A DNA stretch of 41,698 bases, from positions 1 through 41,698 of IMG/VR virus record IMGVR_UViG_3300032421_000010. The stretch is one strand, 5' to 3'. This document shows, piece after piece, positions 114 through 4,767 of this stretch; position 1 is the stretch's first letter; the number at the start of each line of letters is the position of its first letter. The notes beneath the pieces were generated by a model. That model was given only the letters and a program-made list of their open reading frames with translations, was not told the DNA's origin and searched no databases. This DNA comes from a virus. Its lineage: Duplodnaviria > Caudoviricetes. The position numbers and the translations under genes are program-made.

Positions 114-245
114 TACGGGTACGGGTACGGGTACGGGGACGGGTACGGGTACGGGTCCGGGGACGGGTCCGGGGACGGGTCCGGGGACGGGGACGGGTAC
201 GGGTACGGGTCCGGGGACGGGTACGGGTCCGGGGACGGGTATTAA
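9..245 (+). CDS. Gly-X (G-Y/G-D/G-S) repeat small protein
   Basis: ATG overlaps the stop of the upstream gene (TAATG, seen at 41546); GYGSGDG repeats are common in phage proteins. Confidence 0.7.
45..242 (+). repeat. Tandem hexamer array GGG(TAC/GAC/TCC), 33 units
   Basis: Read directly; last unit GGGTAT. Confidence 0.95.
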
Positions 246-268
246 AATCAAGTGTTCTTGAAAAGGGG
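241..268 (+). repeat. 28-bp dif-like site ATTAAAATCAA-GTGTTC-TTGAAAAGGGG
   Basis: TYAA-N6-WTRA family member at a gene boundary. Confidence 0.7.
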
Positions 269-273
269 GATTT

Positions 274-393
274 ATGGGAGACATAGCCGACATGATGCTG
301 GATGGGACGCTGTGTGAACGTTGTGGGGTGTATATCGAAGCCAAGGATGATGGCGCTTGTGTTCCTCGGTTATGCGAAGATTGTCAATCTTAG
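274..393 (+). CDS. Small Cys-rich protein ([18 protein letters not shown]...CEDC), 39 aa
   Basis: Translated by hand; RBS AAGGGGG; two CxxC motifs. Confidence 0.75.
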
Positions 394-416
394 AATTAAG
401 GAATCTTAACATGAAG
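389..416 (+). repeat. 28-bp dif-like site CTTAGAATTAA-GGAATC-TTAACATGAAG
   Basis: Family member. Confidence 0.7.
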
Positions 417-602
417 CGTTGTCAGTATCTCGTAAGTGAAGCGCCTCACTATTTACACAATCATCAATGTTGGATTGATGGGAAGTACGAGGTGATGGGG
501 ATAACGTTGTGTGGTGTGCATAAGAAAAAAATTGAAAAGCTCAATCCATCCAAAGAAGTTTTGGAAGCATGGACAACGGATGGAAAGCGTGGTTTGAGGT
601 AA
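411..602 (+). CDS. Hypothetical protein (MKRCQY...)
   Basis: In-frame ATG at 411 of ORF 357-602, preceded by AAGGA. Confidence 0.6.
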   Translation: MKRCQYLVSEAPHYLHNHQCWIDGKYEVMGITLCGVHKKKIEKLNPSKEVLEAWTTDGKRGLR

Positions 603-604
603 GG

Positions 605-632
605 TTTAGAATCAATCTAAATTAAAACGGAG
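605..632 (+). repeat. 28-bp dif-like site TTTAGAATCAA-TCTAAA-TTAAAACGGAG
   Basis: Family member. Confidence 0.7.
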
Positions 633-637
633 GGTAT

Positions 638-820
638 ATGGAGTTTAAGACAAAAACACCGGATAGGAAGAAACGAAAGATAACGCCCCAAGGTTACATT
701 CCGGTAACTTTGAATATGAGGCCGGAAGATTACAAGGCTCTTAACAAAGAGGCTCAAAAAAGACAAATGAACCTTTCGCAGTTTCAAAGATGGTGTATTG
801 AGAAAGCAACTTCGCATTAA
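638..820 (+). CDS. Ribbon-helix-helix (CopG/Arc-like) DNA-binding protein
   Basis: VTLNMRPEDYKALNKEAQKRQMNLSQF pattern; RBS GGAGG. Confidence 0.65.
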   Translation: MEFKTKTPDRKKRKITPQGYIPVTLNMRPEDYKALNKEAQKRQMNLSQFQRWCIEKATSH

Positions 821-871
821 GCGTGGTTAATTAGGGCTTGTGTTTAATTACCAACTTGAAGTGGAGGCCCC

Positions 872-1042
872 ATGACGGTAGAAGAAGCTTATCGGCAACA
901 CATGGAATTGATGTGGAAAAACATTCGTGAGTCTTGGGAAGAAACCAAAGAGGCTTATTCTCAAAAGTCATTTGAGGACTTGTCCAAGCCTTTCCAGGGC
1001 ATGCCCGACGAGGATATGCCACAATGGAAGCGTTGGGATTAA
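872..1042 (+). CDS. Hypothetical protein (MTVEEAYRQH...), 56 aa
   Basis: Translated by hand; RBS GGAGG; stop lies in the next site. Confidence 0.65.
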   Translation: MTVEEAYRQHMELMWKNIRESWEETKEAYSQKSFEDLSKPFQGMPDEDMPQWKRWD

Positions 1043-1059
1043 CAATCGTTGTTTAGGAG
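1032..1059 (+). repeat. 28-bp dif-like site GTTGGGATTAA-CAATCG-TTGTTTAGGAG
   Basis: Family member with a variant right arm. Confidence 0.6.
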
Positions 1060-1064
1060 GCCCA

Positions 1065-1217
1065 ATGTCCTTGCGTGAGCGTGTTGCGGTTGAGTGGGTT
1101 GAGAACGGAGAGGCTTGCGTAAGGTTTGTGACTGGAATCAAGAAGGCCGAACACTTGGCGAAGAAAGTAAACGGGACCATTAAGAGCTTCAATAATTGGC
1201 AGGAGGTGGAAGAATGA
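1065..1217 (+). CDS. Hypothetical protein (MSLRERVAVEW...)
   Basis: RBS AGGAGG before ATG 1065. Confidence 0.65.
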   Translation: MSLRERVAVEWVENGEACVRFVTGIKKAEHLAKKVNGTIKSFNNWQEVEE

Positions 1218-1306
1218 GCGACCCGATGATGCCAGCCGTTTTGGTCTGTTGTTTGACGCTTGCGGTATTCGCACTTATCACTTGGCTTGGTGGAATTTGG
1301 GATTGA
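1214..1306 (+). CDS. Small membrane peptide, 30 aa
   Basis: ATGA overlap, RBS GGAGG, one hydrophobic helix. Confidence 0.5.
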   Translation: MSDPMMPAVLVCCLTLAVFALITWLGGIWD

Positions 1307-1331
1307 CGTTTGATAGCTAGTCTGTTAGTAT
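1303..1331 (+). promoter_or_regulatory. Sigma70-type promoter TTGACG-N17-TAGTAT
   Basis: Near-consensus hexamers, 17-bp spacing, intergenic. Confidence 0.6.
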
Positions 1332-1354
1332 CCATTCAGAAAGGCAGGTAAAAA

Positions 1355-1486
1355 ATGTCAAAAAAAGAAGTTGCACCGGAAATCAAGAAGCATTTTTCGC
1401 AGATGGGTAAAAAGTCCTGGCAGAAAAGGCAGGAGGCTATTATTGCCGATGCCAAGAAGAAGGAAAAGAAACATGAAAGTAAGTAA
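1355..1486 (+). CDS. Small basic protein (MSKKEVAPEIKKHFSQMGKKSWQKR...)
   Basis: Translated by hand; downstream of the promoter. Confidence 0.55.
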   Translation: MSKKEVAPEIKKHFSQMGKKSWQKRQEAIIADAKKKEKKHESK

Positions 1487-1691
1487 GTGCTTTCGTATTG
1501 AGCTACCAGACGGGTCGTTTTATGACTTGTCCGCCGATGCCAATAAGATTTGGTGTATTGAGGGGGATTCATCCATTCCCAATGGCACAAGGCGATACGA
1601 TGCGATAGAAGATGTGGTCATACCACAGAGAGAATGGTCTCGGTTCATGGTTGCCATGTGTGAGGCGATAGAAAAGGCGGATTGGACATGA
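1473..1691 (+). CDS. Hypothetical protein (MKVSKCFRIELPDG...)
   Basis: In-frame ATG within ORF 1371-1691. Confidence 0.55.
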   Translation: MKVSKCFRIELPDGSFYDLSADANKIWCIEGDSSIPNGTRRYDAIEDVVIPQREWSRFMVAMCEAIEKADWT

Positions 1692-3570: not shown

Positions 3571-3579
3571 GGAGGCTGT

Positions 3580-3825
3580 ATGTCGAACATTTATAAGATT
3601 CAAGCCACACAAAGATTTAAGGGCTCACCTAAGGGACCATTGGGCTATCAAATGGGGGATACAATCCACGTTGAGGCTGTCAACGCCAAGTGGGCTTTGG
3701 AAAGAGCGATAAAACACTATAAATCTGAATTTCTTGAGGATGAAAATTCTGGGAAAAAGTGGCCCTGTGTCGATGTTCAAGTGGTTCATCTTGAAAAGGT
3801 TATTGATGACTTTTTAAAACTTTAA
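3580..3825 (+). CDS. Hypothetical protein
   Basis: RBS GGAGG; bounded by two sites. Confidence 0.7.
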   Translation: MSNIYKIQATQRFKGSPKGPLGYQMGDTIHVEAVNAKWALERAIKHYKSEFLEDENSGKKWPCVDVQVVHLEKVIDDFLKL

Positions 3826-3848
3826 GATTAACAACACATGAAGCGGGG
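3821..3848 (+). repeat. 28-bp dif-like site TTTAAGATTAA-CAACAC-ATGAAGCGGGG
   Basis: Family member. Confidence 0.7.
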
Positions 3849-3854
3849 ATGCTT

Positions 3855-3956
3855 ATGAATCCAAATCAATTTTCGTGGCTTTGTCACTTTTGTGGTTTTA
3901 TGAATTCTGTTTTAATGGGACGCTGTGAAAAGTGCGGTAAAAACCATCAGGATTAA
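3855..3956 (+). CDS. RanBP2-like zinc-finger peptide (WLCHFCGFMN...RCEKCG)
   Basis: W-x-C-x2-C-x3-N-x6-C-x2-C signature. Confidence 0.65.
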   Translation: MNPNQFSWLCHFCGFMNSVLMGRCEKCGKNHQD

Positions 3957-3976
3957 AATTTAAAACGGAGGGCGAT

Positions 3977-4252
3977 ATGGAACAAAGCACAAAATCAATA
4001 GAACAAAGGTTGGTTAAGCAATTATCAAAAGCAATGTTGACAAAATTGAGAATAAATAGACACAAATCCGCATGGTGGAACGATGGAAATATGTGGCTTT
4101 TAAAGAACGCACAGAAGAAGCTAAATTTATTGAAAAAATCAATAATGTCATGTGATTCTGCCAGCGCACAGGGTTATGCCGCCGATGTTGCTAATTTTTG
4201 CCAAATGGCTGTTAGCAACCAAATTGAACAAGATAAGATGTTTGAGGATTAA
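3977..4252 (+). CDS. Hypothetical phage protein (KLRINRHKSAW...ADVANF)
   Basis: RBS GGAGG; motif resembles helical phage NTP-pyrophosphohydrolase-like proteins, function unverified. Confidence 0.65.
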   Translation: MEQSTKSIEQRLVKQLSKAMLTKLRINRHKSAWWNDGNMWLLKNAQKKLNLLKKSIMSCDSASAQGYAADVANFCQMAVSNQIEQDKMFED

Positions 4253-4275
4253 GATTAAGGCAACATAACACGAAG
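4248..4275 (+). repeat. 28-bp dif-like site ATTAAGATTAA-GGCAAC-ATAACACGAAG
   Basis: Family member. Confidence 0.7.
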
Positions 4276-4276
4276 G

Positions 4277-4351
4277 GGCGGGACTGGCAGTTAGACTTAG
4301 ACGGGCCGGTTTGAACTGGGTGCGTTCGCTCTTAGCGAGCCCTACCCGCCA
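4277..4351 (+). ncRNA. Candidate small structured RNA (tRNA-sized, ends CCGCCA)
   Basis: Closing stem GGCGGG/CCCGCC; hairpins CCGGTT/AACTGG and GTTCGCT/AGCGAGC. Confidence 0.45.
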
Positions 4352-4375
4352 TAATTAACGAGGCATGAATAGGGG
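4348..4375 (+). repeat. 28-bp dif-like site GCCATAATTAA-CGAGGC-ATGAATAGGGG
   Basis: Family member. Confidence 0.6.
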
Positions 4376-4380
4376 GAGAG

Positions 4381-4584
4381 ATGAAGAAGCCAAAATTAAG
4401 TCTTGGGTTTGTGCCACCATTCAAAGCGGTTCAAGACGACAAGAAAAACAGTTATTCTTGGTCAGTATTGGATTCGACAGATGGGTATATGTGCTTTCAC
4501 ATTTCGGACGCTAGGGCGAAGCAGATAGCCTTTGCTCTTAATTCGGTGTACAAGCGCAAGGATGCGAACAGGATTAAGAGTTAG
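4381..4584 (+). CDS. Hypothetical protein
   Basis: RBS GGGGGAG; bounded by sites. Confidence 0.7.
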   Translation: MKKPKLSLGFVPPFKAVQDDKKNSYSWSVLDSTDGYMCFHISDARAKQIAFALNSVYKRKDANRIKS

Positions 4585-4607
4585 AATCAACATGAGATGA
4601 TTGGGAG
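4580..4607 (+). repeat. 28-bp dif-like site GTTAGAATCAA-CATGAG-ATGATTGGGAG
   Basis: Family member. Confidence 0.7.
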
Positions 4608-4612
4608 GGCCG

Positions 4613-4690
4613 ATGGATTGGATTTGCAATTTTTGTGGATGGTGTATAGATTCGCCAGTCCATACCATTTGCTGTCAAAGAGATGTGTGA
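4613..4690 (+). CDS. Cys-rich micro-peptide (MDWICNFCGWC...), 25 aa
   Basis: RBS GGAGG; bounded by sites. Confidence 0.5.
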   Translation: MDWICNFCGWCIDSPVHTICCQRDV

Positions 4691-4711
4691 TTAACTGCTG
4701 ATGATTCGGAC
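4684..4711 (+). repeat. 28-bp dif-like site TGTGTGATTAA-CTGCTG-ATGATTCGGAC
   Basis: Family member. Confidence 0.6.
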
Positions 4712-4740
4712 CCCTTAATAACGTAACTTGCTATTAAGGG
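4712..4740. other. Hairpin CCCTTAATA-N11-TATTAAGGG
   Basis: 9-bp perfect inverted repeat filling the space between two sites. Confidence 0.7.
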
Positions 4741-4767
4741 TTGAGTTCAATACATCATGAAACGGAG
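4740..4767 (+). repeat. 28-bp dif-like site GTTGAGTTCAA-TACATC-ATGAAACGGAG
   Basis: Last family member before the core genes. Confidence 0.6.

Follow-up and report, generated by a model that had tools for sequence, protein, structure and literature searches.

What kind of DNA element recurs, at exact gene boundaries, in the early region of the virus record IMGVR_UViG_3300032421_000010 (Duplodnaviria; Caudoviricetes)? The window, that is, the whole stretch of 41,698 nucleotides (nt) analyzed here, is a complete-looking genome of a tailed phage with a terminal overlap of 159 nt, and the sequencing runs that contain the phage carry the label soil metagenome. Its early accessory arm, which lies behind a sigma-70-like promoter (39470) and extends from 39.5 kb over the junction to 4.9 kb, holds an array of 28-base elements composed of two 11-base arms around a 6-base spacer (11-6-11). 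A preliminary description made from the sequence alone had listed 16 such sites and read them as the dif/Xer-like boundaries of a gene-cassette system. The element is present at all 16 coordinates, AA at positions 10–11 and T at position 19 are invariant (16/16), and the motif TYAA-N6-WTRA matches 14 of the 16 sites, as had been claimed.

The motif is enriched in the early arm over both shuffled sequences and the core genome. Specifically, TYAA-N6-WTRA occurs 16 times in the 6,939-nt arm, with 1.6 occurrences expected (200 dinucleotide shuffles; maximum of 8). These 16 core matches are the 14 already described, a new site at 810, and a probable chance match at 3099 inside an HNH gene. The enrichment exists at N6 only (0 occurrences with N5 and 3 with N7), and the counts are 0 versus 1.7 expected in the replication core and 6 versus 4.8 in the structural core. 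Under leave-one-out matrix scoring, 12 of the 16 sites outscore all 68,000 core positions (both strands, 5001–39000), whereas 1, 2, 3, and 41 core positions score as well as or better than sites 3543, 4684, 40079, and 40350, respectively; site 40350 is therefore weak. Sequence information is restricted to positions 2–11 and 18–28, with none at −35 distance, and the core is a near-palindrome with a free spacer and half-site centres one helical turn apart. A de novo word-pair search was dominated by low-complexity repeats.

The placement of the sites follows the gene boundaries of the arm, where most junctions measure 17–51 nt. Among 17 spaced junctions (gap of at least 15 nt), 14 have a full site, two have a partial site, and one has a promoter, while none of nine overlapping junctions has a site. 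When anchored at gene starts, the strict core accompanies seven of 19 early genes, compared with none of 52 core genes (Fisher test; P-value = 4e-5) and none of 37 early genes in three related phages (Fisher test; P-value = 2e-4). The next start codon falls at position 34 for eight sites and at positions 35–39 for five more (13 of 19 sites at 34–39).

The array is larger than first listed, with additional full or degenerate sites at 810, 839, and 4711 and half-sites at 3960 and 41156. On the plus strand, and followed across the junction, the sites lie at 40079–40106 (moderately weak, after a hairpin region), 40350–40377 (the weakest copy, with a degenerate left arm and a leave-one-out score of 4.1), 40917–40944, 241–268 (with a stop at arm position 3 and the next start at position 34), 389–416 (with Shine-Dalgarno [SD]-like bases in the spacer and the start codon within the right arm, the G-R-A-G tail being nonetheless kept), 605–632 (the top score), 839–866 (degenerate and stacked on 810, with a right arm identical at 10 of 11 bases to that of 1951 and a start at position 34), 1032–1059, 1951–1978 (with the upstream stop in the right arm and no gene after it), 2099–2126 (with a 5′ arm that scores as right-type), 3821–3848, 4248–4275 (with no gene after it), 4348–4375, 4580–4607, 4684–4711 (the first of a three-site stack), and, as the last site, 4740–4767. 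Most sites are thus direct, as had been described, but two of the added copies, at 810–837 and 4711–4738, score better on the minus strand, and the site at 3543–3570 (no strand given) is nearly palindromic. The right-type arm of 810 overlaps the stop codon of an RHH-like gene and cannot serve there as an SD. Two exact extra copies of right arms were found, with 0.06 expected, each with a differing left side: an orphan right arm at 41156–41166 (plus strand), identical to that of site 389, and a decayed site at 3946–3970 (plus strand), in which a left-type arm and a 3-base spacer precede a right arm identical to that of site 605. Sites 810/839 and 4684/4711/4740 form gene-less stacks, the latter because the supposed third RNA module at this place is site 4711. 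Site-like sequences also occur within coding regions, at 33909–33936 (plus strand; antisense to the 5′ end of the portal gene) and 40238–40265 (plus strand; within the open reading frame [ORF] 40117–40347), with scores of 17.2 and 14.3.

The outer arm bases often double as a stop codon and an SD, as would be expected if the spacing of stops and SDs in AT-rich sequence had produced the array by chance. The enrichment is, however, spacing-specific, with zero counts at the gene starts of the core and of the relatives. Moreover, the stop codon has six different starting positions in the arm, and the G-R-A ending persists in five right arms that no start follows, which supports the earlier judgement that stop-plus-SD spacing is insufficient; we regard this explanation as refuted, with a negligible remaining probability. 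A hairpin was rejected as well: the arms do not covary, C stands opposite A in two cases, and nine of 17 innermost pairs are A-A. The same holds for a promoter, given that neither sigma-70-like promoter (1303 and 39470) overlaps a site and that there is no −35 conservation upstream; TAGAAT/TAAGAT as a −10 box was dismissed for the missing −35 signal and the existence of inverted copies. Because the stop-plus-SD, hairpin, and promoter readings fail, the element is best read as a double-stranded DNA site with two protein half-sites. The inverted copies at 810 and 4711 also indicate a double-stranded element.

We favour, at evenly balanced confidence, the reading that these sites are recombination (crossover) joints for a putative host tyrosine recombinase of Xer-like geometry. 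The fixed spacing, the gene-exact placement, the stacks, the repeated arms with changed partners, and the bracketing of a folded RNA fit scars or joints better than operators. Under this reading, co-infecting related phages would trade genes that lie between matching joints by means of a host-encoded recombinase. In each joint, the left arm would contain or adjoin the stop codon of the gene upstream, and the right arm would contain the ribosome-binding site of the next gene; genes would consequently be moved whole and ready for expression by a crossover within the six-base centre. Stacks without genes, like orphan arms, may then be scars of exchange events. All 19 spacers differ, which the preliminary description took to require a homology-tolerant mechanism. 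No such mechanism is needed, because unique spacers would act as addresses: deletion within one genome would be blocked, and exchange would occur only at an equal centre of another genome. This parallels pdif modules, for which rearrangements are reported between identical or near-identical spacers (PMC13141974). In a six-frame search, the phage genome has no match to PF00589 (tyrosine recombinase) or PF00239 (resolvase), with controls positive in 14 and 13 of 14 genomes, and the claim that the phage encodes no recombinase thus stands; the reaction would fall to a tyrosine recombinase of the host, one whose site is non-canonical.

Could ordinary XerC/XerD process the sites as canonical host dif mimics? 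The 28-bp 11-6-11 frame and a partial motif match point that way, and so does the pairing of a conserved arm with a variable one, a pattern described for the arms of XerD and XerC (PMC3025954). The arms of the phage sites differ in matrix scores, also where no SD is needed, although stop and SD constraints confound the comparison. However, among the predicted dif sequences consulted, which come from many phyla, most are ATAA-N6-TTAT, with exceptions that include Opitutus and Dehalococcoides (PMC3025954 supplement), and the inner ATAA/TTAT is found in none of the 16 sites, in either arm, contrary to the claimed identity with the canonical XerC/XerD dif. The inner bases of difH (GAAAA-N6-TTTTC; PMC3325230) are also unlike those of the phage sites. 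When compared with the motifs that PMC10132070 prints for XerD and XerC, the arms in the 11-6-11 register match at 5.38 and 3.56 of 11 positions (shuffled, 4.08 and 3.27), and arms shifted outward by one base at 6.06 and 5.00 (shuffled, 3.74 and 2.99). Because the shifted arms match better, the likeness to Xer motifs is real but offset, and the best match needs an eight-base centre. Additionally, pdif modules alternate in orientation (PMC13141974), unlike the sites, most of which are direct. Processing by ordinary XerC/XerD therefore appears very unlikely and, because the inner bases differ, the enzyme acting at the proposed joints is probably not canonical XerC/XerD.

It is possible, but on balance unlikely, that the sites are instead operators for a dimeric DNA-binding protein (the RHH-like product of 638–820 or a host regulator), which would act as elongation roadblocks or as a sponge to tune or shut off the early operon. 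A near-palindromic core with a free spacer and half-sites one helical turn apart is in keeping with operators, sites 605 and 810 lie on either side of the RHH-like gene, no missing enzyme is required, and lineage-specific operators would account for relatives that lack the array. The stoperators of L5/Bxb1 provide a precedent, with 24–34 mainly intergenic copies in one orientation (PMC3029335); like them, the phage sites are numerous, intergenic, and mostly of one orientation relative to transcription, with two inverted exceptions. Yet stoperators are 13-bp asymmetric repressor sites that silence prophages of temperate phages (PMC3029335), whereas here two arms enclose a spacer and no lysogeny genes were found: among 63 phage proteins there is no integrase or repressor family, and the sole candidate DNA binder is the weak RHH-like one (Pfam NikA-like, E 0.035; RHH_1 and NikA shares among its atlas look-alikes), whose predicted model is of low confidence (pLDDT 68) and has no significant fold match. 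Moreover, neither predicted promoter has a site, the relative G008 is array-less despite a weakly RHH-like gene (E 0.062), and head-to-tail stacks and exact gene-end alignment exceed the needs of an operator. An RNA or translation element, such as an extended initiation or processing signal, would explain the narrow range of distances to the next start and the structured RNAs that sites also bracket. Its models are the SAS of cluster K mycobacteriophages, which are repeats that contain an SD and precede non-structural genes, and the ESAS, which add inverted repeats (PMC3203893); they occur in 11–19 copies overlapping the SD, their function is unproven (PMC3203893, PMC12699233), and SD overlap is common to the phage sites. 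However, ESAS are 17-bp inverted repeats with spacers of 4–13 bp (PMC3203893, PMC12699233), in contrast to the 11-bp arms and fixed six bases here, no start follows the right arm in five phage sites, two sites are inverted, and consistent pairing between the arms is impossible, all of which makes such an element improbable.

Several observations weigh against the crossover joints that we favour. The genome itself lacks a tyrosine or serine recombinase family, the RHH-like gene lies inside the array, 19 differing spacers would likewise be expected of free sequence, and stop and SD constraints could account for part of the asymmetry between the arms. The inner bases are not those of dif, as described above. 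No rearranged joint or loose end was found at any site in the contigs of three sequencing runs, two of which are possibly the source of the phage and one of which (X3) yielded fragments only. The X3 fragments span 605 and 4348–4580 unchanged, and their single loose end, at 2895, is off-site; run X2 (65 per cent read) gave no coverage of the main array. This contig evidence against rearrangement is weak, because contigs drop rare variants. A search of viral contigs with two site patterns (29 and 23 loci) returned single matches in all 52 cases. Furthermore, the early regions of four related lineages are without the array. These relatives, which share head genes with the phage at a capsid identity of 44–57 per cent, were retrieved with the capsid protein (G001, G006, G007, and G008, plus two short records; G006 and G007 represent one lineage) and with the alignment of ORF 37758–38435 (L231), and the exonuclease retrieved seven distant loci. 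Motif counts in their early regions are 5 versus 1.2 expected in G001 (borderline, with a shuffle maximum of 6), 0 in G008, 1 in G006, and 2 in ~10 kb of L231. In G008, ORFs 40386 and 41210 have orthologues and 2309 has a homologue, among differing neighbours. Hence, gene turnover of the early arm in this phage family does not need the sites, which weighs against their being required. Because the array is specific to one of the five lineages compared, its gain or loss took place within a single phage family. Finally, a conserved matching site was found in none of the host groups searched.

Other searches for relatives and arrays were as follows. ORF 41210–41548 retrieved 13 loci, none with the array, and ORF 39679–39996 retrieved no relatives. 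GenBank phages gave no portal match and only short matches to a 39-aa gene and the HNH gene. An apparent enrichment in G003 was dismissed, no matrix score there exceeding 9.7. In G006 (L028), two near-identical ~70-nt intergenic repeats, each with a hairpin and an SD, lie between early genes at ~2240–2165 and 1810–1735 on the minus strand; they represent another kind of junction element within this phage family.

In host genomes, the strict consensus yielded at least 120 of an estimated ~130 matches, scattered over many phyla, with 19 outside long open frames. Matches in the sampled host groups amounted to 51/151 (a recurring match inside a coding frame), 17/71, 8/51, 20/31, 24/41 at two mismatches, and 5/121, with no conserved single-copy site, and none of 301 genomes of the phylum of G012 matched (alignment A2). 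A near-perfect copy of the consensus at the end of a contig in a bacterial genome (G467; L236, 21–48) was treated as chance, because it is absent from the 40 relatives of that genome. No capsid relatives were found in genome contigs, and the GroES-like protein of the phage is too divergent to indicate a host.

Integrons and attC clusters are recognized by an integron integrase or by an attC hairpin behind each gene. No integron integrase (PF00589) was found here, and an attC hairpin would not fit most of the junctions. Phage-borne integron cassettes and attC clusters likewise form cassette-like gene rows in phages without their own integrase (PMC9892861). A close likeness in arrangement is to the pdif/dif modules of Acinetobacter Rep_3/OrfX plasmids, in which 11-6-11 sites with varied spacers also bound accessory genes in the absence of a dedicated recombinase; they differ in that the sites described here belong to a tailed phage, are mostly direct rather than alternating, have TYAA/WTRA in place of ATAA/TTAT, include a stop and an SD within the arms, and come with no demonstrated rearrangement (PMC13141974, PMC10132070). 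If the crossover reading holds, the array behaves like dif modules, yet it has neither their inner ATAA/TTAT nor their alternating orientation, and its function is unproven. The PeSL cassettes of the T4-type phages RB49 and phi1 likewise recur between the genes of a hyperplastic early region and are linked to module exchange, but they are promoter and stem-loop units (PMC2839356), whereas the phage sites have neither and instead possess a variable centre of fixed length. Literature searches on phage arrays of dif-like or recombinase sites retrieved no description of such an array for a tailed phage, subscription papers being mostly outside the search.

Three structured ORF-less modules between sites had been reported. 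The non-coding element at 1968–2109 (plus strand) folds strongly into a multi-branched structure (z −6.6; inverted repeat I1), to whose outer stem sites 1951 and 2099 contribute their inner arms. The segment at 4276–4351 (plus strand; 76 nt) is ORF-less and GC-rich; its ends are paired and its 3′ end is CCA, but its folding is not significant (z −1.7; 15 of 200 shuffles as good), and it is not called as a tRNA; it is possibly a decayed tRNA-like RNA. The third, 4712–4740, is the inverted site. An Rfam scan gave nothing at gathering score, including for 1968–2109, and a weak CsrC match (17 bits versus 61) was rejected. In the relative G006, a tRNA is called in the early arm (L028, 795–891).

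Among the remaining features of the arm, the promoter at 39470–39498 (plus strand) is the best sigma-70-like one (10/12) and has no site nearby, and the other, at 1303–1331 (plus strand), lies at a spaced, site-free junction. Site 40079 precedes ORF 40117–40347, and an Imm5-like gene (40386–40916) is followed by site 40917. A 39-aa Cys-rich mini-gene (274–393, plus strand) sits between sites 241 and 389; its N-terminus is common to Xanthomonas phage genes, which are without a site-like flank. It is followed by a 63-aa ORF with no family match (411–602, plus strand; scanned from 414) and by the gene of the RHH/NikA-like small DNA-binding protein (638–820, plus strand; 60 aa; a weak assignment). 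A Cys-rich mini-ORF of 25 aa (4613–4690, plus strand) lies between sites 4580 and 4684, and ORF 4773–4925 and the exonuclease gene are downstream of the last site. Low-complexity repeat ORFs (Gly-Asp/Tyr/Ser and Ala-Tyr/Asn) at 9–245 and 40690–40880 break up the read assembly and give rise to the terminal overlap.

Elsewhere, the genome encodes a P22-like portal, an SU10-type adaptor, a capsid protein, a primase-helicase, a Sak4-like protein, a YqaJ exonuclease, and an M15 endolysin. The large terminase subunit is seemingly split on the minus strand, with an ATPase part at 35755–36693, a second part at 34476–35210, and the GroES-like gene (35207–35758) between them, an order also seen in G001. 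The 225-aa protein of 37758–38435 (minus strand) has no Pfam or PHROG match but is kept in all four related lineages at 36–41 per cent identity, which makes it a family marker; its position suggests that it is perhaps the small terminase. In run X1, the 208 nt at 38480–38687 have a depth of 31 compared with 11 around them, which points to a possible terminal repeat immediately before the early arm.

It has long been asked by what means phages trade small early genes precisely at gene boundaries. If the sites are recombination joints, this genome would offer 19 defined substrates, the clear prediction that crossovers fall within equal spacers, and a pointer to a recombinase whose site is non-canonical. 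As operators, the sites would constitute a roadblock or sponge system in a phage without sign of lysogeny. Tentatively, and at somewhat less than even confidence, we picture a lytic podovirus-like phage with an addressable gene-swap rack in its early operon, in which ~19 joints, individually addressed by six bases and bearing the stop and the ribosome-binding site in their arms, would be worked by a host recombinase whose site is one extra base per arm off the canonical dif, and which would also move non-coding RNA modules.

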